Source: Patescibacteria group bacterium
GTDB lineage: Bacteria > Patescibacteriota > Patescibacteriia > XYB2-FULL-38-15
DNA: 64,000 nt
Assembly: GCA_041653675.1 (NCBI GenBank)
Contig: JBAZEY010000005.1
Coordinates: 10,164-74,163, forward strand
Direction of reading: 5' to 3'
The notes under the pieces were generated by a model. The model worked only from the letters and a program-made list of their open reading frames with translations, searched no databases and had not been told where the DNA came from. Both the position numbers and the translations under genes were made by a program. Positions 8,033-59,778 of the stretch are shown piece after piece (position 1 is the first letter of the stretch; the number at the start of each line of letters is the position of its first letter).

Positions 8033-9790
8033 TTACTCTAAAACCGCTTTAATTCGGCGAATTCCCGCGCTTGAAGCCTCTTCCTTTATAATCTTAAAAG
8101 TCCCTAGTTCTCCGATATTATCCACATGCGGCCCGCCACAAATTTCTTTGCTAAAGTCGCCAATCGTGTAAACCTTAACCTTATCGCCGTATTTATGCTC
8201 AAAAACTCCGGTTGCGCCAGCTGTTTTAGCTTCATCAACCGTCATTTCTTCCATTTGCACCGGCGTTTTTTTGCTGATTTCATTATTAACTATTTCTTCC
8301 ACTTTTTTAATTTCTTCCGGCGTTACCTTTTGCGGATGCGAAAAATCAAAACGCAATCGCTCGGCGGTGATATTACTCCCGCGCTGCACCACATGCTCGC
8401 CCAAAACTTTTCGCAGGGCCGCGAGCATCAAATGTGCCGCGGTGTGCAGCCGAGTTGTTTCCACTCCGGCATCAGCCAAGCCGCCCTTAAACTGCCCGGC
8501 CGAAGCGGTTCGAGAAAGTTCTTGATGTTTTTTAAATTCTTCTTCAAATTCTTTGACGTCAACTTTCACGCCTTTGTCTTGTGCTAATTCCATCGTAAGT
8601 TCCAAGGGAAAGCCGTAAGTAGTAAAAAGGTTAAACGCATCTTTTCCCGTTACATTTTCTAATTTTTCAAATTCTTTCAATCCTCTTTCCAAAGTTTTAT
8701 CAAATTTTTTTTCTTCTTTATCTAATTCTTGAGCTATAAATTCGCTATTTTCTTCTAATTCATGATATTCCTGCCCGTAATAACTAGCAATTACTTTACT
8801 AAGACCGTACATAAAAGTCCCCTCAATGCCGATCTTTCTTGCATGCCGAATAGCTCGGCGAATCAAACGACGTAAAATATAACCCTGACCGACGTTTGAC
8901 GGAACAATCCCAATCGGATCGCCCAAAATAAAAGTCGCGGCACGAATGTGATCGGCGATAATTCTAACTGATTTTTCCTCCGGATCGGCGTCCGCCATTT
9001 CTTTTATCTTGGCCACGAGCGGCGCGAACATTTCTGTTTCATAAACACTATTACAACCGTTCAAAACTCCGATTGTCCGCTCAAGCCCCATGCCAGTATC
9101 AATATTTTTCTGCGCAAGCGGTTCATATTTCCCGTCGGCGGTTTTATTATATTGCATAAAAACATCGTTCCATATTTCTACCCATTTTTCCGTTGAACTC
9201 TTTGTTGAATCTTCGGGATCAAATTTTTCAGGAGGTTTTCCTTCGCCTTTCCAATAAAACATTTCTGTATCTGGTCCACATGGTCCGGTTGTACCAGCTG
9301 GTCCCCACCAATTATCTTTCTTCGGCAGTTTGGCAATTCGTTCCGGAGCAACTCCGAGAGAGATCCAAATATCATAAGCTTCTTTGTCAAAAGGAGCATC
9401 TTCGTCTCCGGCAAAAACGGTAACAGCTAAATATTTTTTATCAAGTCCGAGCCTTTTTTTATCCGTTAAAAATTCCCAAGACATTTTTATGGCGTCTTCT
9501 TTAAAATAATCGCCAAGCGACCAATTTCCTAACATTTCAAAAAAGGTATTATGCCAATTATCGCCAACCTCATCAATATCTCCCGTGCGAATGCATTTTT
9601 GTACGCTCGTTAAACGTTTTCCGGCCGGATGCTTTTCGCCAAGCAAAAACGGAACGAGCGGATGCATCCCGGCGGTCGTAAACAAAACCGTCGGGTCATT
9701 TTCCGGGATTAAAGAAGCCGAAGGAAGAACTGCGTGGCCGCGCTCCTCAAAAAATTCCAAATATTTTTCTCTCAATTCTTTAGCTGTCAT
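8033..9790 (-). CDS. alaS: Alanine--tRNA ligase, compact form (catalytic plus editing domains; no C-Ala/DHHA1 region)
   Basis: The class II AlaRS N-terminus is present (MTAKELREKYLEFFEERGHAVLPSASLIPENDPTVLFTTAGMHP...). The editing-site HxxxH...CxxxH block is present (TAAHLM...CGGPHV). Only 585 aa. Confidence 0.85.
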   Translation of the reverse strand: MTAKELREKYLEFFEERGHAVLPSASLIPENDPTVLFTTAGMHPLVPFLLGEKHPAGKRLTSVQKCIRTGDIDEVGDNWHNTFFEMLGNWSLGDYFKEDAIKMSWEFLTDKKRLGLDKKYLAVTVFAGDEDAPFDKEAYDIWISLGVAPERIAKLPKKDNWWGPAGTTGPCGPDTEMFYWKGEGKPPEKFDPEDSTKSSTEKWVEIWNDVFMQYNKTADGKYEPLAQKNIDTGMGLERTIGVLNGCNSVYETEMFAPLVAKIKEMADADPEEKSVRIIADHIRAATFILGDPIGIVPSNVGQGYILRRLIRRAIRHARKIGIEGTFMYGLSKVIASYYGQEYHELEENSEFIAQELDKEEKKFDKTLERGLKEFEKLENVTGKDAFNLFTTYGFPLELTMELAQDKGVKVDVKEFEEEFKKHQELSRTASAGQFKGGLADAGVETTRLHTAAHLMLAALRKVLGEHVVQRGSNITAERLRFDFSHPQKVTPEEIKKVEEIVNNEISKKTPVQMEEMTVDEAKTAGATGVFEHKYGDKVKVYTIGDFSKEICGGPHVDNIGELGTFKIIKEEASSAGIRRIKAVLE

Positions 9791-10954: not shown

Positions 10955-11785
10955 CTACTCGCCTTCCGCGATCTCCACGAGCCTGCGCTCGAAGGATCGC
11001 CGCTTCGGCTCCCGTTCGAGGTAACCGCACACGACCTTCTTGACGTTGAACATGTCGGGCAAATCGCCGACAAACCCGAAGAGCCCGCGGAGTCTTTCGA
11101 GCTGCACCTGCAGGGCGCGAGCGTAAACCAAGCCGTGCGAACGGCCCATGGTGAGAATCGTTGCCTCCGAGAAGCCGGGCCCCTTTTCCGGCATCTGCCT
11201 GGCCTCTGCGAGAATCAGGAGCGCCGCCCTTTCGGGATCCCCCGCCGACCCCCTCGGTGCGTAGCAGAAATTGATTGTGGCCGCACACTGGGCGTCGAAC
11301 CAATTTCCCGCCCGTGCTGCTTCCAGACAGTCCTCGCGTACTTGGGTCGCCCACTTCCCGAAAAACGTCTGCCGGTTCACCTTGGAGGTGTCGATCACCC
11401 ATTGCCAAGCGAAGACGGTCGGCGAGTTTGGGATGTCATAGACATGAATCAGGGCGTCACCCAACTCAGCCTTCATCGCCTCGAGGCGCGAATACGGCGA
11501 CAATCTCCAATAGTCCACCTTCTCGCAGCCTGCGATCTTGGCCTGGATTGCCGCCTCTTCCGGTGTAGCCCGCCGAAGCTTGGCCGACAGGTGGCCGTTT
11601 CCGGCGTCATGGCTCTCCACTTCCACTACAGGAAACCCCAGAGCTTTTCCCATGGCTTGGAGAACCTTGTGTTGATCGGCCGTGTACCATTCGAACCACG
11701 CGGCGGAGATCTCCTCTCCGACCGCACGGATCTCCCCGGAAATGTATTCACCTAGCGCGAACTTCACTTCACGATTTTCCGCCAT
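10955..11785 (-). CDS. Hypothetical protein (GC island 2), 276 aa
   Basis: AGGAGG RBS 8 nt upstream of the ATG (MAENREVKFALGEY...). ~60+% GC. The region is open in several frames, and this is the longest ORF with an RBS. No known domain recognised. Confidence 0.5.
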   Translation of the reverse strand: MAENREVKFALGEYISGEIRAVGEEISAAWFEWYTADQHKVLQAMGKALGFPVVEVESHDAGNGHLSAKLRRATPEEAAIQAKIAGCEKVDYWRLSPYSRLEAMKAELGDALIHVYDIPNSPTVFAWQWVIDTSKVNRQTFFGKWATQVREDCLEAARAGNWFDAQCAATINFCYAPRGSAGDPERAALLILAEARQMPEKGPGFSEATILTMGRSHGLVYARALQVQLERLRGLFGFVGDLPDMFNVKKVVCGYLEREPKRRSFERRLVEIAEGE

Positions 11786-11841: not shown

Positions 11842-11872
11842 AATAAAAAACAGCGGCGAAATGCCACCGCTA
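11842..11872 (-). terminator. Probable terminator after queH: AGCGGyG...CGCCGCT hairpin followed by T6ATTT on the minus strand
   Basis: Read directly. Stem is imperfect. Confidence 0.4.
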
Positions 11873-11883
11873 TATGAACCGGT

Positions 11884-12473: not shown

Positions 12474-14639
12474 TTATTTAAAACCGTTATTCTTCTGATT
12501 CTGGCCGCCCGTTTTCGGCGGAAAATTTTGTTTACCTCCGCCCCCGCCCCCATTTTTCTTTTTTGCCTGACGCTCTTTTTCTTTTTCAGTCTTAAGGCAG
12601 GCCTTACAATAAACCGGGCGATTCGGATCGGGGTTGAAAGAAACCCGGTCCGACTTCCCGCAGGCAGAACAAGTTATTTCATAAGGAAATTTTTCCTCGA
12701 ATGTTCTTTTATCATCGCCCTTTCCCTTTTCTTTTTCTTTTTTTCCCTCTTCTTTTTTGATGGACAGGGCGGGAGGAACGGGCAACGCGGCCGGAGCTGA
12801 TTTTTTTTCTTCAAGAACAGCGGGCAGATTTTGCGGAATAGGCGCAATTTTCTTCTCGTCCGGTTCATCCAGATTTAAGGGCGACGGGACGTCTTCTTCT
12901 ACGATTGATTTTTGAGGGATATTTTCTTCTTGTTTTTTAACCAACACTCTTTTTTCTTCTCTTACGGGCTTTGGAACAAGCGGCGGCTGCTTTATTTTGA
13001 TATCTATATCAATTTTTTCCTTTGGTTTAATCACAACTTTCGGTGGACGAACAATTACGGTAGGCACAATAACTTCTTTTTGCACCTCTCGCTCTTCATT
13101 AAATTTTTCTCTTTTTTCCGGCTCTGATTCAAAAATTTTTAAGAAATTAACAGCTTGTACTTTTGATTTTTCCAAAATTGCTTCACGAGCGGTGATGGCG
13201 CGCTCTTCAAGCTCGACTTGCGACATTTCTGGTTTTTTCTTTTCTTCTACCTCTACTGCTACCGCCCCGCTTTTTATGCCTTCCGCTTCTTGTTTTTTTT
13301 CTTCAATTAATTTTTTAATCTCCGCCTCCAGTTCTTCGTCGGATTTTTCTTCAGTGCCGATAACCTGCATTCCGCTCCAGCGAATAATCTTTTCCTCAAC
13401 GATTTCCTTCGGCTTGGCGTAACGTTCCCGGGAAACGCGAATGACTTTATCTCTATTATCAGTCGGTCCCGTAACCGGTGGGAGACCCGACGCAGAAAAA
13501 GGCGTTGATGATACGCCATCAATCATCAATTTCATGTACGTATCGTATTTGGTCAAATTTACTAAATCTTCGGCCGTGAAAGTCGGCAAAAATTCTTTTT
13601 CCAAAACCTCGGCATCGGCCGCGCCAATCCGGAAAGCAACAATTGTTCCGACGTTACCAAAAACGGCGGCGGCAACTTCTTCGGCCAACTGTTCAATATA
13701 TTGATGGGCTAAAACTAAATTCAAACGATATTTTCTGGCTTCAGACAAAATATTGGCAAAACTCAAAGTAGCAAAATTTTGAAATTCATCGACATAAAGA
13801 TAAAAATCTTTTCTTTGGGGTTCTGGAATGTCCACCCGGCCCATGGCCGCCAACTGAATTCTTGTAACAAGCATATTTCCCAAAAGGGCGCTCGCGTCCT
13901 CACCAATCCGGCCTTTAGCCAAATTCATTATAAAAATCTTCTGGCTGTCCATAATTTCGCGCATATCAATTGTGGATTTCACCTGGCCGACAATATTTCT
14001 AACAATTGATGCCGATAAAAATTGACCAACCTTATTTTGGATAGGCGCGATCGCTTCCGTGGCGAACCTTTCATTATATTTGGCAAATTCATCAACCCAA
14101 AAAGCTTTGACAACCGGGTCTTTCAGTTTAAGAATAACTTTTTTCCGATAATCCCGGTCGGCTAACATTCTGTTAATTCCAAGCATGGTCGATCCCGGAC
14201 AATCCAAAAGCGCGAGAATTGTGTTATTCAAAATATATTCCATTCTGGCTGACCAAACATCAGGCCATATTTTTTTGAAAACTCCCATCATGCCCGAAGC
14301 AACAAGGTGTTTATATCTTGGATCAATAGATTCCAAAATATTAAAAGCAATCGGCCAGTCCAAATCAGCCGGATTAAAATAAACCACGTCGTTGATTCTA
14401 TCCGCCGGGATAAAATCAAGAATTTTTTCCGCCAAATCGCCGTGTGGATCAACCACGCCTACGCCGCGTCCCGCCCGGATATCGGAGATAATTAAATTCT
14501 CCAGCGTGGTCGTTTTGCCCATGCCGGTTTTACCGATGATGTACATGTGCCGACGGCGATCGTCGGTTTTAATGCCGAAACGTTTTCGAGCTCCTCGAAA
14601 ATTTGTTTCAGCAAATAATGCTACCTCCTCGTTTTGCAT
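12474..14639 (-). CDS. TraD/TraG/VirD4-like coupling-protein-type P-loop ATPase, with a ~330-aa K/E/P-rich tail, C4 zinc ribbon and Gly6 C-terminus
   Basis: Walker A HMYIIGKTGMGKTT, VVDPHGDL, Walker B-like FYLYVDEFQNF. Tail has ...CSACGKSDRVSFNPDPNRPVYCKACL...GGGGGGK. Paralogous to the C-terminal half of 56533-59199. Confidence 0.6.
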   Translation of the reverse strand: MQNEEVALFAETNFRGARKRFGIKTDDRRRHMYIIGKTGMGKTTTLENLIISDIRAGRGVGVVDPHGDLAEKILDFIPADRINDVVYFNPADLDWPIAFNILESIDPRYKHLVASGMMGVFKKIWPDVWSARMEYILNNTILALLDCPGSTMLGINRMLADRDYRKKVILKLKDPVVKAFWVDEFAKYNERFATEAIAPIQNKVGQFLSASIVRNIVGQVKSTIDMREIMDSQKIFIMNLAKGRIGEDASALLGNMLVTRIQLAAMGRVDIPEPQRKDFYLYVDEFQNFATLSFANILSEARKYRLNLVLAHQYIEQLAEEVAAAVFGNVGTIVAFRIGAADAEVLEKEFLPTFTAEDLVNLTKYDTYMKLMIDGVSSTPFSASGLPPVTGPTDNRDKVIRVSRERYAKPKEIVEEKIIRWSGMQVIGTEEKSDEELEAEIKKLIEEKKQEAEGIKSGAVAVEVEEKKKPEMSQVELEERAITAREAILEKSKVQAVNFLKIFESEPEKREKFNEEREVQKEVIVPTVIVRPPKVVIKPKEKIDIDIKIKQPPLVPKPVREEKRVLVKKQEENIPQKSIVEEDVPSPLNLDEPDEKKIAPIPQNLPAVLEEKKSAPAALPVPPALSIKKEEGKKEKEKGKGDDKRTFEEKFPYEITCSACGKSDRVSFNPDPNRPVYCKACLKTEKEKERQAKKKNGGGGGGKQNFPPKTGGQNQKNNGFK

Positions 14640-14645
14640 ATTTGT

Positions 14646-16073
14646 TTATACTGTTGGTAATTTTTCCGGTGGTAATCCTTCTTTTTCTTCCTTTGACAAC
14701 TCCTCTTCCCCTCCGGTTTCCTTCATCGCTTTCATATAGTTCGGATATTCAAACGGCAAATTAATAGGCGGCACGCCACGTTTACTTTCCACGGTCTTAA
14801 CGGGCGGCGCCTTAATCCAAGCCGCTGGGAAGTGCCACATCGTAGCCAGCTCTTCAATATTTAAAACAAAGCCCTTTCCAATTCCCCTCGTTTGGCTGCG
14901 CCCCTTATAGGCCCGCAAAATTTTTTCTTTTTTCCACTTTAATCTTGTTTTTATAAAAATATAATGGGCGGCGGTGCCAACTTTTTTATATTCCGGCTTA
15001 ATACTCTGGCCATCCATAGTACTAAATTGTTTGATCGCGCCAACCATAGGATGCGCCGCGCGTGCTTTTTTGAAAATTTCCTTTTTCCCAAGATAAATCA
15101 TTCTTATCTTTGTTTGAAAACCGATCTTGGAAATTTTTCTTTCAATCGCCTCAACCAGGGTTTTTACTCCGGGCGAAAGATATTGCATCATGGACGCCTC
15201 TTTCTTTTCTTCTTTTTTCTTCACCGGCGCGTCTTCTCCACTGCTTAAAATCTGAGTCAAGGCCGTGTCCGCGACTTTTCCAGGCAGATCAACAATTTTA
15301 CTCAGCCAGGTCTCTTTCGCTTCAATCTTCGCACCAATTAATTTTTTAACCAAATTTACACCTTTCGTGGTCCATTCTTTCTGGCTAATCGGAGTGATAA
15401 TTATCTGAAACCAAATATGTTCGCCCTTTCCCATTTTGGACATCGTCTCAAGCATGGCCGCCAAAGGATCTTTAAACTCCTTAGTCGTTGGATCTTCAAA
15501 ATCATGATAAGTCCGTAAGGGATACGCGTCTTCTTTTTTAACCTTAACCCATTCCGTGCCAAATAACTCCCATTCGGCGTCTGGAAAAATTTTCGGCGCC
15601 CACTTTGTATAATCAACAACTTCCGTAATTTCTGCGGCGGGATATTGGGCGTAAACCGCTGCCTCAACTAAATCACGAAATTTATCGCGAGTGCGAATGA
15701 CAAACTGGATATACCCTTCAGTGCTTACAATTTCTAAGCTAAACCAATCCTGGGTTTTCCCTTCCCAATACTTTTCCCAAAGAGTATCTGTGCCGTGCGC
15801 GCCGTCCAGATGGGAAAAAATATTTTCTACGGCTAGGGGCGACTGTCCTGGTTCATCCAAAACAGCTTTCGGAATATCTATTGCTAAAAAAATCCAGCGG
15901 CGCTTTGCTTCGTAAAGATTCTGCCGCCAATTAACCCAAATTTCCCATGATCCCCAAAGAAAAACCCAAAGGATTATGGCCCATCCTCCGTCGGCGAAAA
16001 GCCGCCACATTATAGCAGGAGGCGACATTGTCGCTAATTTATCAAAATAACTCAAATCAATAGTGATCATCAC
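14646..16073 (-). CDS. Membrane-anchored partner protein: N-terminal TM segments plus large soluble domain. Paralog of the N-terminal half of 56533-59199.
   Basis: Shared motifs are FSLEIVSTEGYIQF vs LSFEIIADKGLISF, and ATMWHFPAAW...PPINLP vs ASLFHFPSPW...PPINMP. Stop lies 6 nt before the ATG of the ATPase ORF. Confidence 0.55.
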   Translation of the reverse strand: MMITIDLSYFDKLATMSPPAIMWRLFADGGWAIILWVFLWGSWEIWVNWRQNLYEAKRRWIFLAIDIPKAVLDEPGQSPLAVENIFSHLDGAHGTDTLWEKYWEGKTQDWFSLEIVSTEGYIQFVIRTRDKFRDLVEAAVYAQYPAAEITEVVDYTKWAPKIFPDAEWELFGTEWVKVKKEDAYPLRTYHDFEDPTTKEFKDPLAAMLETMSKMGKGEHIWFQIIITPISQKEWTTKGVNLVKKLIGAKIEAKETWLSKIVDLPGKVADTALTQILSSGEDAPVKKKEEKKEASMMQYLSPGVKTLVEAIERKISKIGFQTKIRMIYLGKKEIFKKARAAHPMVGAIKQFSTMDGQSIKPEYKKVGTAAHYIFIKTRLKWKKEKILRAYKGRSQTRGIGKGFVLNIEELATMWHFPAAWIKAPPVKTVESKRGVPPINLPFEYPNYMKAMKETGGEEELSKEEKEGLPPEKLPTV

Positions 16074-16123: not shown

Positions 16124-16138
16124 TTATTATAGCACAAA
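16124..16138 (-). promoter_or_regulatory. Extended -10 promoter TTTTGTGCTATAATAAA (minus strand)
   Basis: Identical motif recurs at 33151-33165 and 34770-34784. TGn plus TATAAT. Confidence 0.45.
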
Positions 16139-16227
16139 AAATGAGTCAAGTTAATAACAAAAATAACCCTATTGCGGGTTCATTTTTAAAATTAAAATAA
16201 AAATCATCTTTTTTGCAAAATATGAGG

Positions 16228-22433: not shown

Positions 22434-23291
22434 TTACGGACAAACAGCCTCGTCCCCTTTCACGAGCGAACGCTCGCTGAAAAGAACATAATCATAAAGT
22501 CCCGACATCGGCGATCTGCGAGGCATTGTTACTCTAATCGCCTGGCGCACCGTGCTATATTTACCAGTTGAACTTAAAACAATTCTCGCAGGAATTGCTA
22601 CCTGCGGCAAAGCGGCATTATCGGCTCCCCAAGCTGTAATTATAACATTATTAATGTCACAATAAAGTGCTTTGACGCGAAGCCGATAAGATTTGACGCT
22701 AGAAAATCCGTTATTAATCGCCGGACTCGCGAGTGCCGAATATTTAAATTTTTGTTCCACCGCGTCCGACCAACCAACTACCGGATCCCATGCAATGTAG
22801 CCAACTTCAATCATCGAAACTGCCGGCGCGATACAATTTGGTGTCCATTCGATTTTAACGGATTCTATCCCCGCGGCAACGGCATTTTCCGGATCAAAAA
22901 GATCAATTTGCATTGAATTATCTTTATCAATTTTTCCGTAGATTTGTTGTTCTCGATCAACGATTGTTCTTGCCCAAGAGGATTGATTATCTAAATTTCC
23001 CTCCGTCGTAAGGCACGCCTCCTTTTCTCCGCCCGAACAAAATCCGTTCTCCTCGCAAGTTCCCACCGGGCAAACCAAAACCGCGTTTTCTTTTCTTAAT
23101 TTATAAATCGCCTGTTCAACGCCCGCCTCGGCGGCATAATAAGCCACGGCGGAAAAATCAATATTCCTCGCTTGTTTAATTTCACTTAAAATAATCGCGC
23201 CAATACCAAGCCCAGCCGTCATAATCACAGCCATTACAAGGAGCGCCAAAAGCAGCACATTACCTTCTTCATTTTTAAAACATTTAAACAT
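22434..23291 (-). CDS. Type IV pilus minor pilin/assembly protein, PilX-like N-terminal domain
   Basis: N-terminus NVLLLALLVMAVIMTAGLGIGAIILSEIKQARN...AYYAAEAGVEQAIY resembles the PilX_N domain. Confidence 0.5.
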   Translation of the reverse strand: MFKCFKNEEGNVLLLALLVMAVIMTAGLGIGAIILSEIKQARNIDFSAVAYYAAEAGVEQAIYKLRKENAVLVCPVGTCEENGFCSGGEKEACLTTEGNLDNQSSWARTIVDREQQIYGKIDKDNSMQIDLFDPENAVAAGIESVKIEWTPNCIAPAVSMIEVGYIAWDPVVGWSDAVEQKFKYSALASPAINNGFSSVKSYRLRVKALYCDINNVIITAWGADNAALPQVAIPARIVLSSTGKYSTVRQAIRVTMPRRSPMSGLYDYVLFSERSLVKGDEAVCP

Positions 23292-23292
23292 T

Positions 23293-23880
23293 TTATCTTC
23301 TATAAATTCTGCTTGACACAGTTGTTTCTAAATAAATTGTTTGTTGTTCTTCCACCCGACCACCGATGCCTTTAGTCGCCAAAACAATCGTCACTCTCGG
23401 CTGATTATCGGAATCATAAGTATTTCCCGCATTCATTAAAAACGGATCAACTGCCGGATCGATATAAAATTTTAAATCTTCCACATTATTTCCCTTTGAA
23501 GTAATACTTGCCCAGGTTACTCCCCCGTCGATACTAACCGTGAGACATTTAGCCGTTCCCGCCGGACAATTATCCGCACTTTTTTTAAAAATAATTGAAT
23601 TATTATCCGCGTCCAAAAGCGCCAGCTCGTCTTCGGGCAAAGTTATTCCGGCGGCGTAACCAGCCCAACCATAATCAATCATATCCATTTTTATTTCTTT
23701 AGACATTGCCTCCATGGAGTAACGCGCGTCAGATTGAATTTTTTCTATCGCCAAGGTTCGGCGCTGTGCCTTGCCCGCCATCATAAAAATATCAATAATA
23801 ACAACCGTTGCCACGGAAAAAATTGCGAGTACAACCATCATTTCAACTAATGTAAAACCTTTTTTATTCATAAGAGACAT
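23293..23880 (-). CDS. Type IV minor (pseudo)pilin with prepilin leader
   Basis: MSLMNKKGFTLVEMMVVLAIFSV... is a class III signal (G/FTLVE). Confidence 0.55.
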   Translation of the reverse strand: MSLMNKKGFTLVEMMVVLAIFSVATVVIIDIFMMAGKAQRRTLAIEKIQSDARYSMEAMSKEIKMDMIDYGWAGYAAGITLPEDELALLDADNNSIIFKKSADNCPAGTAKCLTVSIDGGVTWASITSKGNNVEDLKFYIDPAVDPFLMNAGNTYDSDNQPRVTIVLATKGIGGRVEEQQTIYLETTVSSRIYRR

Positions 23881-24041
23881 TTTGGAGAATAATTTTTCGT
23901 TGCGAAACGAAGCAGTTTTGAGCGAAAAAGGCGAACAAACTACGACGTTTAATAAATTTAAATTAAGCGGAGAAGTTTTGAGCCTTTTGCAGCCAAAAAT
24001 GTGAGTTGCAGTAGAAAAGATTATTCTTCAAAGGGTCTCAA

Positions 24042-24644
24042 CTACCGCCAATTATAAATTTTGTCTTCTAGCGTCACATCTCGCGGACGGCCGGAAATAG
24101 TCCATCTTACTTCCGACCTAACCCTGATGCCAATTTTTTCTTCTCCCCCGCCGCAAGGATTTCCAGTAATCGTTTCCGTCTCTGTCGCCGCGTTAAAACA
24201 AATCGGATCAAGGGTGATGATTCGTGAATAAAGAGTTGCCGTGCCAGCCGGCGGCGCTACGTCTTGTAAATATAAATTTTCCGGACTGCGATATAATTTT
24301 GCCGCGGGATCGGAAACGACGTTCGGCGTAAAATCAAGGCTCCATTTATTCGTTGCCGGTTTAAAAACCGCAATTGCCGTAAAATCGTTTCCCAAAAAAA
24401 GTCCCGAATCCCAAACTAAATTTTTCAACCAATTAGCGTCTCGAAAATTGCGAACAACTTCCGCGCCTTCTTTCGCAAGATTTGAAGCCACCACTCTTGT
24501 CCCAGCTTCGTCTACTCCTTTCAGATTAGAAATGGTAAGTGAAAGGGCCCCCACCAAACCGGTTAAAATTATAGAGATGGCAACAATCATCTCCACCAAA
24601 CTTTGACCCTTTTCCGATTTTAAATTTTGAAAATTAAAAAGCAT
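24042..24644 (-). CDS. Type IV minor pilin (PilV-like)
   Basis: ...KGQSLVEMIVAISIILTGLVGAL... prepilin-type N-terminus. Confidence 0.5.
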   Translation of the reverse strand: MLFNFQNLKSEKGQSLVEMIVAISIILTGLVGALSLTISNLKGVDEAGTRVVASNLAKEGAEVVRNFRDANWLKNLVWDSGLFLGNDFTAIAVFKPATNKWSLDFTPNVVSDPAAKLYRSPENLYLQDVAPPAGTATLYSRIITLDPICFNAATETETITGNPCGGGEEKIGIRVRSEVRWTISGRPRDVTLEDKIYNWR

Positions 24645-24656
24645 AACTCAAATTTT

Positions 24657-25172
24657 TTATTCAACATCAATTCTCCCCGAAACCCGATTGACTAAAATTT
24701 TTCTGATCTTGCCGCTAATATTGTGCTTCAAATCTACTTCTAAAACATTGTCGGCTGTGCCGCCATTAATATAAGCTGTCGGCTTTGGTGGTTTAAAAAC
24801 CACACTGGAATTAGCAAGCGGCTGCACTCCCGTGATGACAACATTCTTTGCGAGAATAATTTTTCCATCCAATAAATCTTCACCCAAATCATATTTTTGA
24901 TTGCCGTTAAAATCAGCAAAAACAATATATTGAAGCGGCGTACCAAGAGTAAAATAAACTCCATATCCTCCTGGGGGCGTTATCCCACCTACCTGCTCTC
25001 CAGCCAAAGCCATATTCTGTGCTTTGCGTAAATTGGAAACAAGGGTATCGGCCGCGATTTTTAATTCATCGCTCTGACTTCCTCCCCGAAAATTTGTAAC
25101 AACCATGGCCGTCACAACGACAAAAATTCCCAAAGAAACAAGAAGTTCAATTATCGTAAAACCTTTTTTCAT
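24657..25172 (-). CDS. Type IV pilin / GspH-FimT-like pseudopilin
   Basis: MKKGFTIIELLVSLGIFVVVTAMVV... prepilin N-terminal methylation motif. Confidence 0.55.
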   Translation of the reverse strand: MKKGFTIIELLVSLGIFVVVTAMVVTNFRGGSQSDELKIAADTLVSNLRKAQNMALAGEQVGGITPPGGYGVYFTLGTPLQYIVFADFNGNQKYDLGEDLLDGKIILAKNVVITGVQPLANSSVVFKPPKPTAYINGGTADNVLEVDLKHNISGKIRKILVNRVSGRIDVE

Positions 25173-25173
25173 T

Positions 25174-25950
25174 TTAAAAATTTAAATACCAACTTAAAAC
25201 CGACGTACCAAAAAACATAGCAAAAATCGTTCCGGCAGCAAGAAATGTTCCAAATGGTACTTGGCTTTTCATTGTTTTCTTTTTGGAAACTACTAAAGCC
25301 AGACCGACAATCGCGCCCACTACGTAAGCAAAAAATAATGCCACGCCAAGTCCGCCCAACCCCAAAATCAATCCCATCAACGCTCCCAATTTTATATCTC
25401 CTCCACCAATCCATTTTCCTTTTGAAATTATATATTGCAAAAGAAAAAATCCGCCGCCGAGTACGCCCGCGATAAGTGGATCAAAAAGTCCGGCCCAGGA
25501 AATTTCTCCGCCATAAATTAACGGCAGCGTCACGAGAACAACGGCCGCCGCGGGATAAATAATTTTATCTGGAATTAAATAATATTTTAAATCTGAAACA
25601 AAAATCACGATTAGGGTAGCAATGATAAACCAGGTTCTTGCCAAAAGAAAAAAATCATAAGTTGTAAACCGCAGATCGTGAGGCAAATACGCGAATAAAA
25701 ATAAAATCGCCGTAGAAAGTTCCACGAGCGGATATTGCCAAGAAATTGGCTTCCCACAGTGCCGACATTTCCCTTTCTGAATTAAAAAACTCAAAACTGG
25801 AATGAGTTCAAATGGCCCCAAAACGTGGCGGCATTTTGGGCAATGGGACCGGCCGGTTAAAATTGATTCTCCGGCGTGTAGCCGCCAAATTACAACATTC
25901 AAAAAACTGCCGAAAATTAAGCCAAAAATAAAAACAATAACGTGTGCCAT
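25174..25950 (-). CDS. pilD: Prepilin peptidase (A24 family)
   Basis: N-terminal CPKCRH...CRHCGKPISWQYPLVEL zinc motif and multi-TM peptidase body. 258 aa. Confidence 0.85.
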   Translation of the reverse strand: MAHVIVFIFGLIFGSFLNVVIWRLHAGESILTGRSHCPKCRHVLGPFELIPVLSFLIQKGKCRHCGKPISWQYPLVELSTAILFLFAYLPHDLRFTTYDFFLLARTWFIIATLIVIFVSDLKYYLIPDKIIYPAAAVVLVTLPLIYGGEISWAGLFDPLIAGVLGGGFFLLQYIISKGKWIGGGDIKLGALMGLILGLGGLGVALFFAYVVGAIVGLALVVSKKKTMKSQVPFGTFLAAGTIFAMFFGTSVLSWYLNF

Positions 25951-25956
25951 ATTCGA

Positions 25957-25970
25957 GAATTATAACACGA
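25957..25970 (-). promoter_or_regulatory. Extended -10 (cGTGTTATAAT) only ~8 nt upstream of the pilD ATG: leaderless configuration
   Basis: The minus strand reads TTTCGTGTTATAATTCTCGAATATG. Confidence 0.4.
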
Positions 25971-25989
25971 AAACTAACAAAAACCAAAC

Positions 25990-26016
25990 AAAAAACTCCC
26001 GCGCGGGAGTTTTTTG
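25990..26016 (-). terminator. Palindromic intrinsic terminator CTCCCGCGCGGGAG flanked by A6/T7 (bidirectional), after pilA
   Basis: Perfect 14-nt GC-rich palindrome with U-runs on both strands. Confidence 0.7.
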
Positions 26017-26042
26017 ATCTCTCAAAATTTTGAGACTAAATT

Positions 26043-26522
26043 TTACTGCAGGCCTGCCGGAGTAACTTTGTGAGCTCCCTTTAGCAAATCTCCAGTATTT
26101 CCTTCCAAGTAAAAACAGAATTCGTAAGTAGTAGCCGTCGGGACTACTTTGACGGAATAATTACAAGGAGCTTGGACTGTCGCGTCACAAGCGGCGGCGC
26201 AAGCGGCTGCACCATTCGGATCTTTCAAATTAAGTATCCCTGGCAAAAATTCCGTAATTGGAGTCGCAGGAAGGACTGGACCATTACAAGAGCTAAGCAA
26301 AGCGCCCGGAGCGGCACAACCCGCCATCACGTAAGAATTATTGGCGCTAAACATCAATTCCATGGCTGTCTGAACCTGCTTCATATCTGAAACTCTCTTT
26401 GAGTCTCTTGATTTCTGTCTGGCTGAACTCAAAGCAACGACCGCCAAAGTTGAAAGCAAGCCGATAATGGCGATAACCACCAACAATTCAATCAAAGTGA
26501 AACCTTTTTTATTTTTAAACAT
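26043..26522 (-). CDS. pilA: Type IV major pilin
   Basis: MFKNKKGFTLIELLVVIAIIGLLSTLAVVALSSARQKSRDSKRVSDMKQ... is a classic type IVa pilin N-terminus. 159 aa with C-terminal Cys pairs. Confidence 0.8.
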   Translation of the reverse strand: MFKNKKGFTLIELLVVIAIIGLLSTLAVVALSSARQKSRDSKRVSDMKQVQTAMELMFSANNSYVMAGCAAPGALLSSCNGPVLPATPITEFLPGILNLKDPNGAAACAAACDATVQAPCNYSVKVVPTATTYEFCFYLEGNTGDLLKGAHKVTPAGLQ

Positions 26523-26580
26523 TATTTCACCCCCTTCCAGAAGCCGCGGGGAAACCGCGACTCAAAAGATTAATTTTATT

Positions 26581-26594
26581 TATTATAACACATT
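26581..26594 (-). promoter_or_regulatory. pilA promoter: extended -10 TGTGTTATAAT, then a GC hairpin and GGAAGGGGGTGA RBS
   Basis: The minus strand reads TTTTAAATGTGTTATAATAAATAAAATT...GTCGCGGtttccCCGCGGC...GGAAGGGGGTGAAATAATG. Confidence 0.55.
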
Positions 26595-27679: not shown

Positions 27680-27741
27680 AATTTTTCATCTATCACAACT
27701 GGGTAAAAACACAGAGTGTATTCAATATTTCTTAAATAAAA

Positions 27742-28302: not shown

Positions 28303-28347
28303 AAAAATAAATTTTATTTGAACGAACTTTCGTCAAATACTGTACCG

Positions 28348-30081: not shown

Positions 30082-30082
30082 A

Positions 30083-30325
30083 TTAAAACTTCATAAAAGG
30101 ATCAATTTTTCCTTTTTGGCCAACTTCAATTGGCAATGTGATATTTTGTTTTAGATCGTTAAATTTTTCTTCAGAAAAAATTTTGGTATCAAAACTAGTA
30201 TCGATAGTTTTTCCGGCGCTCAAAACACTTTCCGTCTCGCCGATTATTAGCATGCTATACAAAAAATATCCGCCTCCGGCAATAATGAACAATATAACTA
30301 TTAAAATAAGTGCTCTCTTTTTCAT
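30083..30325 (-). CDS. Small single-TM protein in the pilus operon
   Basis: 80 aa. MKKRALILIVILFIIAGGGYFLY... Confidence 0.4.
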   Translation of the reverse strand: MKKRALILIVILFIIAGGGYFLYSMLIIGETESVLSAGKTIDTSFDTKIFSEEKFNDLKQNITLPIEVGQKGKIDPFMKF

Positions 30326-30336
30326 AAAATTAATTT

Positions 30337-55706: not shown

Positions 55707-56501
55707 CTATACCTCGTTTCTCTTAATCACATTCTCCACCGCTGCCCATTTTGACGGCGTATTTTTAGGAATCAAAATTACTGCCTCATCACCCATTTCA
55801 CCTTTAAAGTATGTCACCGGCGCCGCGAGGACTCTCCATTTTTTCCCGCCGGAAGCAACTGTCCAGCCGCCAGATTCTGCTTCTTCAAGCATTCCGACTA
55901 CCCGATTTCGTTCCATTGGTCCGATTTGTTTAAAAAGAAAATTGCCGCGGGCATTAATCGTAAGTTTTAAAATATCTCCTTCGACCAATTTTGATTTTGA
56001 AGCGTAGTTCGACGGCACAAGATATTCTTTGCCATCGGCGCCAATCATATTCTGGCCGTTAAAAACCCCTTCCATAATTCTCTCGCCCGATTCGCCATAG
56101 GCCACATCCGGCTGGGAAACGGTTTTTAATCCTGAAAACATCGGGGCAATTGAAGGCGCGGTGGCGATAATATCGGAATCAAGAAAACTTTGTTTAATTT
56201 TTTCTTCAAACTTTGGCGCGTCCTCACCCAAAAGACAATTTATCCGCCGCAAATTATCCTGCGTTTCTTTAACTATTTTTTTAATCAATTCTATTTTTTC
56301 AAAATTGAAAGAAATTTCCAAATCTTTGAGTTCAGTCTTCGCCGGCGCGTCATAAATTTTCGGCGTCACCTCAAACGGCACGGCTTCAGCGGGCATAGCC
56401 ATTGGTTCCGCCGACTCCATCATTTCTTGTCTTGAATCTGTCTGATTTTCTACCGGTCCATCAATATTTTGAAAAAGATCGTTTTGATTTTGTCCCAACA
56501 T
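55707..56501 (-). CDS. Hypothetical protein (downstream of the fused coupling-protein-like ATPase)
   Basis: 264 aa, no recognised motif. Preceded upstream by a probable terminator hairpin at ~55655-55685. Confidence 0.4.
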   Translation of the reverse strand: MLGQNQNDLFQNIDGPVENQTDSRQEMMESAEPMAMPAEAVPFEVTPKIYDAPAKTELKDLEISFNFEKIELIKKIVKETQDNLRRINCLLGEDAPKFEEKIKQSFLDSDIIATAPSIAPMFSGLKTVSQPDVAYGESGERIMEGVFNGQNMIGADGKEYLVPSNYASKSKLVEGDILKLTINARGNFLFKQIGPMERNRVVGMLEEAESGGWTVASGGKKWRVLAAPVTYFKGEMGDEAVILIPKNTPSKWAAVENVIKRNEV

Positions 56502-56532: not shown

Positions 56533-59199
56533 TTATAATGACCTTTCCCCCACCATTGGCCCGGCAACTCCCTCTGGCACGCCGAGCTGCGTTCTCTCGG
56601 AAATTTCCGCTTCCACGATACTTTTATCGCGGCCGTATTTTAATCTGGCAAGTTGTTTCAAGGCTTGGGCTAATTCCGCGTCACCTTTTTGCGGCGCAAG
56701 AGTTTGCATATTAAACGCTTTGGAAGCCGCGTTATCAATTAAAAGTTTAATGTAGGCTGTGTATTTTTCCACATTCAACAAATCGTATTCGTTAACGGTC
56801 GGCGCGAATTCTTTGGCAATTGTTTCCACGTCATCCACGCCAATTCTGAAAGATATCATCGTCCCGGCATTGCCGAAAACCGCGTCGCGAATTTTTGTGT
56901 CATTATTTTTTACCAACTGCCCGACATACTGATGGGCAATCGTAAGGCACAGCCGATATTTTCGAGCTTCAGATAAAATTGTGGCGATGCTGTCGGTAAT
57001 AAAATTTTGGAACTCATCAATATAAAGATAAAAATCATGGCGCTCGGCTTCGGGCAATTCGGCCCGGCTCATCGCAGCCATCTGAAGTTTTGAAACAATA
57101 ATCAAGCCCAAAAGTTCGCTGTTCACTTCACCGGTTTTGCCTTTTGCCAGATTCACAAGCAAAATTTTCTTCTTATCCATTATTTCCCTAAAATCAAAAC
57201 CTGAACGGGATTGTCCAATAATATTTCTTATCATTTCGTTTTCCACAAATCGGCCGACTTTGGAAATCAAGTAACCCAACATTTCTGATTTATGAAAATC
57301 CGAAGTCTTGGCCATTTCTTTTTCCCAAAAAGAGCGGACAACCGGATCTTTGACTTTCGCCACCCAAGATTTTTGAAATTCATTATCGGAAAACATTCTT
57401 GGAATTTCCGCGATTGTGCCGGGATTTGCCAAATCCGACATCAAAGTCAACATCACATTTCTCATGTTATGCTCAAACATCGGACCGATCATTTCTGGCG
57501 GGAAAAGTTTATAAAAAATAGCGATCATTTCCTGGACGGCAAAATCTTTTTGCGATTCATCTTTGGCCTCAAGCATATTTAGACCAATCGGCCGGTCCGC
57601 GTCTGACGGATCAAAAATAATTACGTCGTCCAACCGTTCTTTCGGTATGCCAGTCAAAATTTCTTCAATCAAATCGCCGTGCGGATCAACTACGGCTACG
57701 CCTTCGCCATTAGCAATATCCTGCTTAACCATATTGGCAAGCAAGACAGATTTACCAACGCCGGATTTACCAATGACATAAACATGGCGGCGGCGGTCTT
57801 CTCTTTTAATTTTAACCATTACTTCCGTTCCGCGGAAAGTGGATTTCCCAAGCGTCACTCCTTCTTTTGGCATATTAATCGGCGGCGCGGCTTTTTTTGC
57901 CAAAAGCCACTGGATATTGGGCGCTTCGGTCCAGGGCGAAGGAAAATGAAAGAGACTTGCCATTTCTTCCGAGTTCAAAACAACTTTTTTCTTTTCATGA
58001 AAACCTCTATGGATAAAATCTCTAATCAATTTTTTCAAATGACGGCCGCCCGGTGCCGTACGCGCGAAACTATTTCCGTATTGATAAATATTATACTGGG
58101 AAAAAGCGTTCGAAATATTATCCAAATTCATTTTTGCCCGCGCGCTATTTGGTGATGATGAGATGATTCTAACATTGACATCAACTCCAGCCTTACTCGC
58201 CTTTTCTTCAAGACCCTTTACCATTTCCTCTTCCATCGGCGAAAGACGATAAATTTCCGGTTGAGGCTTTAATTGATCTTCTGGTTTCTTTTTCGTTCCG
58301 CCGGCAAACATTTTTCCCAATTCTCCCAATATTTTCATGAAGATATTTCCGCTAACCGATGACATTGCTTCGCCAAGCTTCTTTCCTTGTTGCATTTCCT
58401 GGGCAATTTTTATGCCTGGCCGGCGCCATTCTTTACGCGCTGAGCGTATTACAAATTGAATAGCCGCGCCTTCATTTTTTTCCAACTTTGAGAGGACGTT
58501 TGTCAGACCGTTCATCGGGTCTGTCTCCATTTTTTTATAAGTTTTTATCGGGAAAAAATGCGGGCGCTTGAAAGTTAAATAAGCGCCGCGGATATCTCCG
58601 GTCGGCGTAAAAATATTATAATCTTTGATTTCTTCAATAAAAGCCTCGTGATAATTCGCTCTGATTTGCTGTTCAATATATTCCTGCAAATATTTTGGCA
58701 CGGCTACATAAAAAGAAATTAACCCTTTGTCGGCGATAATTTCAAAAGAAAGATAATCTGTCCGTCCGGTAAGCCAGGCGCCAATTCCTTTTTGCGCTTT
58801 TAATCCGCCAATCGACGCGAAAAGAGCTTCGGCCGTGGCAACACCCTCTTGAATAGTTTGGACGGTAATCTCTCTTTTTTCCTGAGCTTGGGCCCTTTCC
58901 GCTGATTCTTTGGGAACCGTAACGAGCAAAACTATATTTTTAAAAGAGGTGGACATCTTTGTCCGATGATGCAAAAATTTTCTAAGCAGAGAAATTAAAA
59001 ACCACGATCCTAAAAAAATCGCGGCAAGCGTAAAAATCATTATGCCAATCGGACTCTCCGCAAAACTTCCGACTTCTTCAGGAATTTCCGGAGTCGGCAG
59101 GGTAATTTGATAAAAGGAAAAAACGAAAAGCGCGGCGAGCGCAGTGCTCGGTAGCCATCTTTTTATTTTATGCCAATTTTTTTTCTCTACATCCTCCAT
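56533..59199 (-). CDS. Fused membrane-anchored TraD/VirD4-like coupling-protein-type ATPase (888 aa). N-half resembles 14646-16073 and C-half resembles 12474-14639.
   Basis: Two N-terminal TM segments. Walker A HVYVIGKSGVGKSV, VVDPHGDL, FYLYIDEFQNF. Linker ...APPINMPKEGVTLGKSTFRG... is continuous where the other locus is split. Confidence 0.6.
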   Translation of the reverse strand: MEDVEKKNWHKIKRWLPSTALAALFVFSFYQITLPTPEIPEEVGSFAESPIGIMIFTLAAIFLGSWFLISLLRKFLHHRTKMSTSFKNIVLLVTVPKESAERAQAQEKREITVQTIQEGVATAEALFASIGGLKAQKGIGAWLTGRTDYLSFEIIADKGLISFYVAVPKYLQEYIEQQIRANYHEAFIEEIKDYNIFTPTGDIRGAYLTFKRPHFFPIKTYKKMETDPMNGLTNVLSKLEKNEGAAIQFVIRSARKEWRRPGIKIAQEMQQGKKLGEAMSSVSGNIFMKILGELGKMFAGGTKKKPEDQLKPQPEIYRLSPMEEEMVKGLEEKASKAGVDVNVRIISSSPNSARAKMNLDNISNAFSQYNIYQYGNSFARTAPGGRHLKKLIRDFIHRGFHEKKKVVLNSEEMASLFHFPSPWTEAPNIQWLLAKKAAPPINMPKEGVTLGKSTFRGTEVMVKIKREDRRRHVYVIGKSGVGKSVLLANMVKQDIANGEGVAVVDPHGDLIEEILTGIPKERLDDVIIFDPSDADRPIGLNMLEAKDESQKDFAVQEMIAIFYKLFPPEMIGPMFEHNMRNVMLTLMSDLANPGTIAEIPRMFSDNEFQKSWVAKVKDPVVRSFWEKEMAKTSDFHKSEMLGYLISKVGRFVENEMIRNIIGQSRSGFDFREIMDKKKILLVNLAKGKTGEVNSELLGLIIVSKLQMAAMSRAELPEAERHDFYLYIDEFQNFITDSIATILSEARKYRLCLTIAHQYVGQLVKNNDTKIRDAVFGNAGTMISFRIGVDDVETIAKEFAPTVNEYDLLNVEKYTAYIKLLIDNAASKAFNMQTLAPQKGDAELAQALKQLARLKYGRDKSIVEAEISERTQLGVPEGVAGPMVGERSL

Positions 59200-59205: not shown

Positions 59206-59727
59206 CTATTCTATTTTTTGTTTTTCTTTTTCCGCCATCGCCATCACCTTGTCTGTTTTAATTTTTGCTTCCTGCTCCAGAAAAAATTTATTAACTCCGG
59301 GAATAATTTTGAGCCAACTACGTATTAATTTTAAAATTTTTCGGGCAACATTCCTCCCCGTCTCCACCATTTTTTCTATTTTTGAAGCCGTTTCTTCTCC
59401 CTTTTCTTTAAATGCCTGCTGACGCGCCGGCGGCATGGAAAAATAAAATGACTCCAGGTCTTCCTCCAGAATTTTTTCTATTTTAATCAACGTCCCGCTT
59501 TTTTCCGGCTTCTCCGTGATCGGATGGACCACGGCCGAAACAAGCGGTTTTTTTCCGTTTTTTTCTTCGGCCGGAATGACTTTTTCCCATTCTGGCTTCG
59601 GCGCCGCCTCCGCTTCAACTTTTTTTTCAGGAACAATCGCCTGCTCCTTCTCCGGAACCATTTTTTCTAAGCCGCCGATTTTTTCTGTTTTATCTTTTAT
59701 ATCCATGTATACAAAAATTACGCTCAA
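59206..59727 (-). CDS. Hypothetical K/E-rich protein upstream of the fused ATPase
   Basis: 173 aa. Stop is 6 nt before the ATPase ATG. Confidence 0.35.
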   Translation of the reverse strand: MSVIFVYMDIKDKTEKIGGLEKMVPEKEQAIVPEKKVEAEAAPKPEWEKVIPAEEKNGKKPLVSAVVHPITEKPEKSGTLIKIEKILEEDLESFYFSMPPARQQAFKEKGEETASKIEKMVETGRNVARKILKLIRSWLKIIPGVNKFFLEQEAKIKTDKVMAMAEKEKQKIE

Positions 59728-59764
59728 TCCGTTGTTAATTTCTCAATTGTATCATAATTTATAA

Positions 59765-59778
59765 ATTTGTGCTAAAAT
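59765..59778 (+). promoter_or_regulatory. Extended -10 promoter TTTGTGCTAAAAT for corA, followed by AGGAGGAG RBS
   Basis: Plus strand reads aaaTTTGTGCTAAAATgaag...tctAGGAGGAGtATG. Confidence 0.45.

Follow-up and report, generated by a model that had tools for sequence, protein, structure and literature searches.

A stretch of 64,000 nucleotides from a Patescibacteria group bacterium (GenBank assembly GCA_041653675.1, contig JBAZEY010000005.1, positions 10,164 to 74,163 of the forward strand), referred to here as the window, contains two loci that encode ATPases resembling the coupling proteins of type IV secretion systems (T4SSs). An earlier sequence-only reading had proposed that these loci are paralogous, one being split into two open reading frames (ORFs) and the other fused into a single one, and all three ORFs were recovered where it had placed them. 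Both loci, with all features described for them below, are on the minus strand. The fused protein (paralogue A, 56533..59199, 888 aa), an ORF with Pfam and NCBIfam matches, is composed of an N-terminal helix and a transmembrane segment (aa 49-73, 58981-59055), a DUF8128 domain (approximately aa 88-445, 57865-58938), and an ATPase (approximately aa 446-870, 56590-57864) with the Walker A motif GKSGVGKS (aa 477-484, 57748-57771) and the Walker B motif FYLYIDEFQNF (aa 723-733, 57001-57033). At the split locus (paralogue B), the first gene (14646..16073, an ORF of 475 aa whose true start is probably the ATG at 16070) encodes the N-protein, in which the cytoplasmic DUF8128 domain comes after a hydrophobic helix rich in Trp (aa 20-47). 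The second ORF (12474-14639, 721 aa) encodes the ATPase, in which a core (aa 1-420, 13380..14639) with a TrwB/VirD4-like nucleotide-binding domain and an all-alpha insertion harbours the motifs GKTGMGKT (Walker A, aa 36-43, 14511-14534) and FYLYVDEFQNF (Walker B, aa 279-289, 13773-13805) and is followed by a long C-terminal tail. The transmembrane segments that had been noted in both paralogues were retained for the fused protein, which has one strong segment (Kyte-Doolittle value 2.35) plus its N-terminal helix, whereas the helix of the split N-protein is weakly hydrophobic (1.5).

The relationship between the two loci was established by BLASTP. Residues 145-446 of the fused protein aligned with residues 105-442 of the 475-aa ORF at 24% identity (E=4e-23), including the motifs D(W/Y)(F/L)S(L/F)EI(V/I), HFPxxW, and PPIN(L/M)P, and residues 443-866 aligned with residues 1-418 of the 721-aa ORF at 45% identity (E=7e-123), including GK(S/T)G(V/M)GK(S/T), VVDPHGDL, and FYLY(I/V)DEFQNF. 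All the motifs previously aligned by eye were present, both alignments are far beyond chance, and on this basis the two loci are true paralogues.

At the fission junction (14637..14648) the N-protein gene ends with TAA (14646-14648), which is followed by a 6-nt spacer and the ATG of the ATPase gene (14637-14639), giving the sequence ...CCA ACA GTA TAA aca aat ATG in one frame. Since the two ORFs share this frame, they are interrupted by a stop codon in frame rather than by a frameshift. As had been suggested, the break falls in the linker, between the PPINLP motif (aa 435-440 of the N-protein, 14754..14771), plus an extension of 35 aa, and the first strand of the ATPase; the aligned counterpart of PPINLP in the fused paralogue is located directly before the ATPase. 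No Shine-Dalgarno sequence precedes the ATPase ATG in the junction sequence, and in more than half of the relatives' loci the spacing stays within some 11 nt, whether or not the two frames agree. Given the tight spacings and the lack of a Shine-Dalgarno sequence, it is likely that the ATPase is translated by termination-reinitiation coupling.

The linker is well conserved: across 121 stand-alone DUF8128 homologues P436 and P440 are invariant, and the PPxxLP linker motif is kept in 107 of them. Past this motif, the N-protein keeps a conserved extension of 30 aa that has its own terminal motif. A second P-x-x-L-P motif, PPEKLP, is found at the C-terminal end of the N-protein (aa 468-473, 14655..14672), about 30 residues past the linker motif, and PxxLP occurs within the last 14 residues of 109 of the 121 stand-alone proteins. 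This terminal PxxLP is a candidate peptide for docking the soluble ATPase in trans.

The tail of the split ATPase (12474..13379 including the stop codon) is rich in Lys, Glu, and Pro (17%, 16%, and 9%, respectively) and presumably disordered. A length of about 330 aa had been given for it, which is corrected here to about 300 aa; the K/E/P-rich composition, the C4 zinc ribbon, and the Gly6 run were all recovered. The ribbon, CxxC-x17-CxxC (aa 653-685, 12585-12683), possesses the four Cys residues with the x2/x17/x2 spacing of such a motif, and the Gly6 run (aa 697-702, 12534-12551) follows it. The ribbon scored above the cut-offs of Pfam zf_Tbcl_2 (PF23477; 42.1 bits, cut-off 27, E=6.8e-11) and of TIGR04272 (38.4 bits, cut-off 36, E=7.6e-10) and was found in the tails of 48 of 61 split-type orthologues. 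The sole PDB match of the ribbon was the zinc domain of T7 primase: together with the following K-rich/Gly-rich stretch, a weak phmmer match was obtained to the N-terminal zinc-binding domain and linker of the T7 gp4 primase-helicase (E=0.0035). The CxxC zinc-ribbon family has been reported to bind zinc in small proteins of M. mazei (PMC12704099), and zinc binding is its only known property; a literature search for DUF8128, PF23477, and TIGR04272 found no paper. The tail is likely a module for the capture of a substrate or partner. There is no second such ribbon in the window.

Family of the ATPase and fold of the DUF8128 domain

The assignment of the ATPase half to the TrwB/VirD4-type coupling-protein lineage within the FtsK/HerA superfamily, which the sequence-only reading had put forward, is supported by domain, profile, and structure comparisons. 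The domain searches might have led to an unrelated family, but coupling-protein families were matched instead, with scores above the Pfam gathering cut-offs for TrwB_AAD_bind (41.7 and 45.5 bits, the latter for the split ATPase; cut-off 20.5), T4SS-DNA_transf (42.5 bits, cut-off 20.1), and TraG-D_C (27.7 bits, cut-off 22, split ATPase). The top NCBIfam matches were TraD and VirD4 models, and phmmer searches of the PDB led to TrwB. When a profile of 119 members was compared with TrwB of R388, hhalign gave a probability of 95% (E=3.8e-8, 259 columns), as against 9% for the VirB4 protein TrwK, where the match was confined to the Walker A region; sequences for these profile comparisons were taken from RefSeq R388 and pCF10. 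The VirB4 model TIGR00929 scored 17.7 bits against a cut-off of 643, so that the ATPase is not closer to VirB4 than to coupling proteins. Residues G477, G480, G482, K483, D728, and E729 are invariant in the 119 sequences, and both Walker motifs are intact. An AlphaFold2 (AF2) model of the fused protein (predicted local distance difference test [pLDDT] 85, predicted template modelling score [pTM] 0.71) was matched by Foldseek to TrwB with template modelling (TM) scores of 0.63-0.67 over about 430 columns, and between its core strands aa 549-661 form a block of about 110 aa that is entirely helical and is spanned by the TrwB_AAD_bind match. R388 TrwB (PDB 1E9R/1GKI), like VirD4 and TraD, has the same nucleotide-binding domain with an all-alpha insertion and an N-terminal anchor, and its Walker A/B, RK(Y/A), and (H/L)Q motifs align with the Patescibacteria ATPase. 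Further fold matches were Cag-beta of H. pylori (TM 0.53) and DotL of Legionella (TM 0.56).

Other members of the same P-loop superfamily of ring translocases, namely FtsK/SpoIIIE, HerA, and EccC/EssC, were compared as well. FtsK was rejected because FtsK_SpoIIIE (PF01580) reached 15.7 bits against a cut-off of 24 and covered the P-loop only (split ATPase); no such match was listed for the fused protein, and Pfam detected no FtsK gamma domain. HerA (TM 0.53) matched through DUF87, its central domain in Pfam, just above the cut-off over the P-loop region, and HerA proper was set aside since its scores were either below cut-off or limited to the P-loop. EccC/EssC proteins are, like the Patescibacteria motors, membrane anchored with an extra domain before the ATPase. 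In contrast to FtsK, HerA, and EccC, the Patescibacteria motors showed neither a HAS-barrel nor a gamma domain nor ATPase domains in tandem, and the best matches were consistently type IV coupling proteins (T4CPs). A role in HerA/MADS anti-phage defence was also rejected, as the PADLOC matches to mad8/HerA were generic, companion genes were lacking, and the housekeeping context is conserved. Both ATPases matched PADLOC mad8 with 49-59 bits over most of the core, and these moderate core-wide matches suggest that mad8 is itself a T4CP-like ATPase.

The architecture and the genomic association differ from those of TrwB, VirD4, and TraD. In coupling proteins the anchor directly precedes the ATPase, whereas in the Patescibacteria motors the DUF8128 domain of about 350 aa intervenes, and in paralogue B the anchor is on another polypeptide. 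Furthermore, the genes are chromosomal core genes and are not beside relaxase or mating-pair genes, and there are two ancient paralogues, of which one is split and has a presumably disordered tail with a zinc ribbon. As the features of the ATPase domain are present and those of architecture and association are not, the proteins are best regarded as a variant within the T4CP family that belongs to no characterised subfamily.

According to structure prediction, the N-terminal half is a folded domain of about 350 aa and thus more than the transmembrane segments and linker that had been noted. Precomputed annotations place PF26449 (DUF8128) on a 99% identical protein of 474 aa (P0121), on a 93% identical fused homologue (P0001), and on nearly all relatives; the local Pfam scan of this region gave no match at E up to 0.1, for which the local copy may lack the model. 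The AF2 model of the split N-protein (pLDDT 85.5, pTM 0.80) had VirB4 chains as the only significant fold matches of DUF8128 alone: the 10 top PDB matches were all TrwK/VirB4 chains (E from 3.5e-4, Foldseek probability up to 1.00), at low TM scores of about 0.3. The model of the fused protein aligned with VirB4 over 908-947 columns through both domains in the same order (best E=1.8e-14), and by E-value no other chains matched it better. At the sequence level, no link to a solved structure was found, and hhalign detected no similarity between DUF8128 and the N-domains of TrwK and PrgJ (probability <1%). Given the TM score of about 0.3 and the null result of the profile comparison, the view that DUF8128 resembles the VirB4 N-domain, which is based on fold only, is reasonable but unproven. 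VirB4 proteins such as R388 TrwK (PDB 7O42/8RTD) appear to share the order of an N-terminal domain followed by a C-terminal ATPase; in contrast to VirB4, the Patescibacteria ATPase resembles TrwB far more than TrwK, and the protein brings a membrane helix of its own, where VirB4 depends on VirB3, and is not encoded in a T4SS cluster. A precedent for the split is provided by plasmid pGO1, for which TrsD, an N-domain-like protein, is described in PMC12102498 as encoded apart from the ATPase TrsE.

History of the split and genomic context

DUF8128 abounds as a stand-alone protein of 430-500 aa, with 1531 matches in a first search. This form is present in at least 517 species genomes of Uhr-, Magasanik-, Kerfeld-, Falkow-, Buchanan-, and Kuenenbacteria, and a profile of 121 members retrieved 3263 cluster representatives, of which the top 150 were all stand-alone. 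Metagenome loci carry no taxonomy, and the breadth beyond Uhrbacteria/Magasanikbacteria-type lineages is taken from the literature. The ATPase was a separate ORF immediately downstream in 63 of the 79 distinct loci of relatives, with gaps ranging from -74 to +587 nt and in mixed frames, and such variability cannot come from a sequencing error that recurs. The two ORFs shared a frame in 27 of 65 loci (41%, compared with one third by chance), which was not regarded as an enrichment for stop-codon read-through. The possibility raised earlier that the split is a sequencing frameshift is thus answered by the in-frame stop, the 99% identical P0121, the many genomes with a stand-alone form, and the variable frames; from the sequences compared, the split is real, ancient, and lineage-wide.

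A phylogeny of the paralogues had been recommended, and the comparison of the ATPase cores resolved two clean orthogroups. Cores of the split type were 68% identical to one another and those of the fused type 73%, whereas identity between the types was 44%, and every between-group distance was larger than every within-group distance. In neighbour-joining trees calculated on identity-based distances, the split clade had a bootstrap support of 89%; PcfC was misplaced as an outgroup by long-branch attraction, and therefore only TrwB was used for rooting. The split core is 63-92% identical to its orthologues, and the fused protein has 2254 homologues with approximately 60% identity across relatives; in a metagenome scan, the single-ORF architecture continued down to approximately 40% identity. 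In three divergent metagenome loci (L114, L122, and L135), both paralogues are in tandem and the B-type gene is a single ORF of 865-969 codons from stop to stop (961 aa in L135). The ATPases of these unsplit proteins are 54-61% identical to the split ATPase and have an N-terminal extension of 348-412 codons before the core; the N-terminal half of the L135 protein is 29% identical to the split N-protein, to which it is nearer than to the fused type. The zinc ribbon is absent from the L135 protein, the one of the three whose tail was inspected, and this tail is charged. The tandem loci with an unsplit B-type gene indicate, as the simplest history compatible with these sequences, a tandem duplication of the fused gene followed by a lineage-wide fission of copy B at the PPxxLP linker.

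The split ATPase core is under strong constraint. It is approximately 68% identical to its relatives, whereas in the same genomes alanyl-tRNA synthetase (AlaRS), MnmA, and DnaX are approximately 55%, 43%, and 35% identical, respectively, and it thus has the marks of a core function. Both loci are located among housekeeping genes with ordinary GC content, the neighbours being AlaRS, MnmA, QueH, GatA, and LigA at the split locus and DnaX, CysRS, and CorA at the fused locus. A remnant of a mobile element was rejected on account of this context, the ordinary GC content, and the lack of an integrase or relaxase among the larger ORFs of the window scanned with Pfam.

Conserved neighbours were identified at both loci. 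In approximately 50 of the 79 loci, SecD and SecF are encoded on the same strand within approximately 4.5 kb upstream of the DUF8128 gene, often preceded by SecA; 66 of the 79 loci have more than 3 kb of upstream sequence. In the tandem loci L114, L122, and L135, SecF and SecD are found a few kb downstream of the unsplit B-type gene on the opposite strand. This SecDF neighbour has been lost in the window and in the closest relative, L004. The adjacency of SecA, SecD, and SecF across lineages and in two orientations may be an inherited block, or it may hint at a function. MnmA and AlaRS lie downstream of paralogue B in relatives. In the window, the gap upstream of the N-protein gene is 154 nt and holds a promoter-like site, TTAACT-17-TATAAT with an extended -10 TG (16126..16154), which is the best match in the region (10/12), and a terminator-like hairpin with a 10-bp stem and a T-run follows QueH (11850..11873). 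Both are consensus matches only, and on this sequence evidence a DUF8128-ATPase-QueH operon is possible.

Paralogue A is preceded by a small partner gene (59206..59727) that ends 6 nt before it. The TTG start proposed by the ORF finder is probably wrong, and the ATG at 59706, which matches the homologues, is probably the real start (approximately 166 aa). The N-terminus of the partner protein varies, and conservation is seen in an amphipathic C-terminal part of approximately 100 aa (…LIRxWLKLIPGVNRFFLEQEAKIKTD…; …WLKLIPGVNRFFLEQEAKIKTD…); its 1144 homologues are all 138-199 aa long and all annotated as 'hypothetical', and they correspond to no Pfam family. The partner is encoded directly upstream of the fused gene in the three relatives inspected (L084-L086) and in many metagenome loci. 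On the other side, a gene for a 264-aa protein (55707..56501), which had no match in Pfam, NCBIfam, or PADLOC, is located between the fused gene and dnaX, and in L085 and many metagenome loci a homologue comes next after the fused gene, often with DnaX behind it. In the Uhrbacteria locus L010, the pair formed by the 264-aa protein and DnaX is instead found approximately 5 kb upstream of the split locus. A promoter-like site upstream of the partner gene (TTAGCA-18-TACAAT with TG, 59746..59775), again a consensus match only, suggests an operon of the partner gene, the fused gene, and the gene for the 264-aa protein.

The window also contains the type IV pilus cluster that had been noted (22434-33121, minus strand). 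It comprises four N_methyl pilin-like genes (23293-23880, 24042-24644, 24657-25172, and 26043-26522) and genes for the peptidase PilD (25174-25950), PilC (26594-27679), the ATPase PilB (28348-30081), and PilM (32069-33121), and ORFs without a family are interspersed (22434-23291, 30337-30966, 30985-32016, and 33185-34765). Other observations concern the window as a whole. Nearly all genes are on the minus strand, and the GC skew, between -0.04 and -0.29, is negative in every 2-kb bin, which points to a single replichore with an extreme gene-strand bias. Between MnmA and QueH there is an ORF of 276 aa without a family (10955-11785, minus strand), which is part of a locally GC-rich stretch (0.49 as compared to approximately 0.42) and is overlapped by a long antisense ORF (11135-11755); since no more than about 450 nt are found at this place in L004, an 85%-related locus, this region is probably a recent insertion. 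The AlaRS gene (8033-9790, minus strand) encodes 585 aa and ends right after the tRNA_SAD domain; bacterial AlaRS proteins are usually longer.

Function and competing explanations

We consider it probable that the two loci encode ancient T4CP-derived motors that arose by tandem duplication and fission and act in membrane translocation. Each motor is made of an N-terminal membrane anchor, the cytoplasmic DUF8128 domain of approximately 350 aa, and the TrwB-like P-loop ATPase. Paralogue A is one polypeptide that is probably co-transcribed with its small partner, whereas the anchor/DUF8128 protein and the soluble ATPase of paralogue B would be made in a fixed proportion from adjacent, probably translationally coupled ORFs and re-associate at the membrane, possibly via the C-terminal PxxLP peptide of the N-protein. 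By analogy with TrwB, hexameric rings may form at the cytoplasmic face of the membrane, anchored by the helix or helices and the DUF8128 platform, and ATP would be used to engage DNA or unfolded protein and to push it into a membrane channel. The split ATPase has gained a flexible tether of approximately 300 aa ending in a zinc ribbon that would capture a substrate or partner, and paralogues A and B would serve different substrates or partners. Family membership, architecture, paralogy, fission, conservation, and gene context are established by the comparisons above, and hexamer formation, assembly in trans, and the substrate are inferred. The role in DNA uptake or host interaction that had been suggested is conjecture.

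As for the channel, a chromosomal Patescibacteria-type T4SS encoded elsewhere in the genome is our leading, if tentative, candidate, and a T4SS-independent role is nearly as likely. The T4SS of Patescibacteria is near-universal and essential (PMC10633639; Quinonero-Coronel et al. 2025, PMC12102498). The latter study reports 5,713 VirD4-type homologues in 2,918 of 3,035 Patescibacteria genomes, that is, approximately two per genome. Several observations weigh against the proposal that the motors are coupling-protein-derived and feed a T4SS channel. Pfam scans of the larger ORFs of the window, in which several ORFs remained unmatched, detected no VirB4, VirB6, VirB8, relaxase, integrase, or pilin array, so that the VirB4/VirB6-like genes whose search had been recommended were not encountered. 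Only 148 of the 5,713 homologues are near virB4, and the homologue of S. epibionticum is non-essential even though the T4SS is essential (both from PMC12102498); this dispensability does not settle T4SS independence because it could be explained by redundancy between paralogues. In addition, no curated NCBIfam T4CP cut-off was approached (SXT_TraD 48.7 bits against 366, conju_CD1115 39.7 against 250), which indicates that the family is a distant, separate branch. Finally, 13 loci (L035, L036, L042, L046, L061, L062, L070, L073, L075, L076, L079, L081, and L082) encode DUF8128 without an ATPase match in the fetched locus, including approximately 6 kb downstream, and the two halves can thus be encoded apart. 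These orphan genes are followed by apparently unrelated genes, glycosyltransferase-like and primase-like, as read from translations alone, and several keep SecDF upstream. The different numbers of genomes with T4CP (2,918) and VirB4 (2,417) were rejected as an argument for independence from the T4SS, since an assembly completeness of approximately 80% suffices to account for them: one VirB4 gene would be detected in approximately 80% and at least one of two T4CP genes in approximately 96% of the genomes, which matches the published counts.

The explanations that compete with a T4SS-feeding motor differ widely in their probability. That the split locus is simply a broken gene, be it a pseudogene, a sequencing or assembly artefact, or the decaying remnant of a conjugative element, is extremely improbable. 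Taken alone, two ORFs in the same frame parted by TAA and 6 nt do look like the outcome of a nonsense mutation, but P0121 comes from independent assemblies, the stand-alone form occurs in at least 517 species genomes, frames and spacings vary across loci, both halves are strongly constrained, and the N-protein keeps its 30-aa extension and terminal motif; with housekeeping neighbours, ordinary GC content, and neither integrase nor relaxase, this explanation is refuted for the lineage. A T4SS-independent DNA translocase exapted from conjugation is possible, if not the expected outcome. Such an enzyme would import DNA for salvage or competence together with ComEC and the type IV pilus, or handle the chromosome as FtsK does, and nucleic acid would be bound through the K-rich tail and the zinc ribbon. 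The T4CP lineage, with its TrwB fold, typically comprises DNA motors, no relaxase or T4SS gene is nearby, and DnaX is a conserved neighbour of paralogue A, in the vicinity of which L084 and L085 also encode ribonucleotide reductase, ThyX, dCTP deaminase, deoxynucleoside kinase, and HU. The weak similarity of the ribbon to the DNA-template-binding zinc domain of T7 primase (E=0.0035) and the presence of the pilus cluster in the same window point in the same direction, as does PMC12102498, according to which comEC is dispensable and t4cp genes were possibly exapted. However, nucleotide-metabolism neighbours are seen in few loci only, the FtsK_SpoIIIE score remains below cut-off and no gamma domain was detected, and comEC, comF, and pilus genes are not conserved neighbours in the loci examined. 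The functional link to the pilus suggested by the sequence-only reading is accordingly not borne out by the relatives, where the regular neighbours of the split and fused loci are SecDF, MnmA/AlaRS, the partner gene, and DnaX. Two papers on Saccharibacteria TM7x reportedly mention FtsK, and a canonical FtsK may exist in the phylum.

A motor for protein export or envelope assembly, in which paralogue B would cooperate with SecA/SecDF or another membrane complex in handling pilins or adhesins, is in our view unlikely. It is modelled on pilin dislocation by VirB4 or on protein export by EccC/EssC of the type VII secretion system (T7SS). It draws on the proximity of SecD-SecF to the DUF8128 gene in approximately 50 of the 79 loci and to the unsplit B-type genes, on orphan DUF8128 genes that retain the SecDF neighbour in the absence of the ATPase, on the VirB4-N-domain-like fold, and on the fold matches to Cag-beta and DotL, which are VirD4 proteins that move proteins only. 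This synteny may nevertheless reflect an inherited block, given that MnmA and AlaRS are conserved on the opposite flank; the SecDF neighbour is gone in the window and in L004, and Pfam and NCBIfam gave no sequence signal to Sec or T7SS components. The probability left by the T4SS channel, the DNA translocase, and the Sec-linked motor falls to something else. A bolder proposal, which we regard as rather improbable, is a Patescibacteria-specific core translocation machine that works without a T4SS, in which a TrwB-type ATPase that keeps a VirB4-like N-domain would represent a living intermediate between VirB4 and T4CP. Located at the membrane next to SecDF or its own small partners, it would import host DNA or nucleotides or export proteins for episymbiosis, and the fission of paralogue B would let a soluble motor, tethered through its zinc ribbon, be recruited on demand to the DUF8128 platform at the membrane.

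Returning to the T4CP-derived motors that we favour, parts of these findings were already known. The T4CP homologues counted by Quinonero-Coronel et al. are almost certainly the same family, and the occurrence of approximately two coupling-protein homologues per Patescibacteria genome is presented there as a general feature; exaptation of t4cp homologues was also suggested by these authors. NCBI names the relatives 'type IV secretion system DNA-binding domain-containing protein'. A term search of PMC12102498 found no mention of DUF8128, two orthogroups, a fission, a zinc-ribbon tail, a small partner gene, or SecDF/DnaX synteny, the family being present there as a count only. The papers searched likewise contain no account of an architecture in three parts, of a VirB4-like fold for the N-domain, of the polarity of the fission, or of the other features just named. 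The architecture, the fission, the partner genes, and the SecDF synteny appear to be new.

Patescibacteria represent a large share of bacterial diversity and live off other cells, lacking the synthesis of nucleotides, amino acids, and lipids. How macromolecules are transported across their envelope is a central question, and the family analysed here, near-universal in the phylum according to PMC12102498, has no assigned role. A VirB4-like N-domain joined to a T4CP-type ATPase, two paralogues with different partners, and a natural split at the linker offer experimental handles, and they guide the choice of proteins for co-expression and of docking peptides; single knock-outs may be masked by the paralogue. 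Should the motors prove to be conventional coupling proteins of a T4SS whose channel is encoded at another place, the outcome would be modest, though still of use for annotation. Furthermore, this family bears on the relationship between VirB4 and the coupling proteins.

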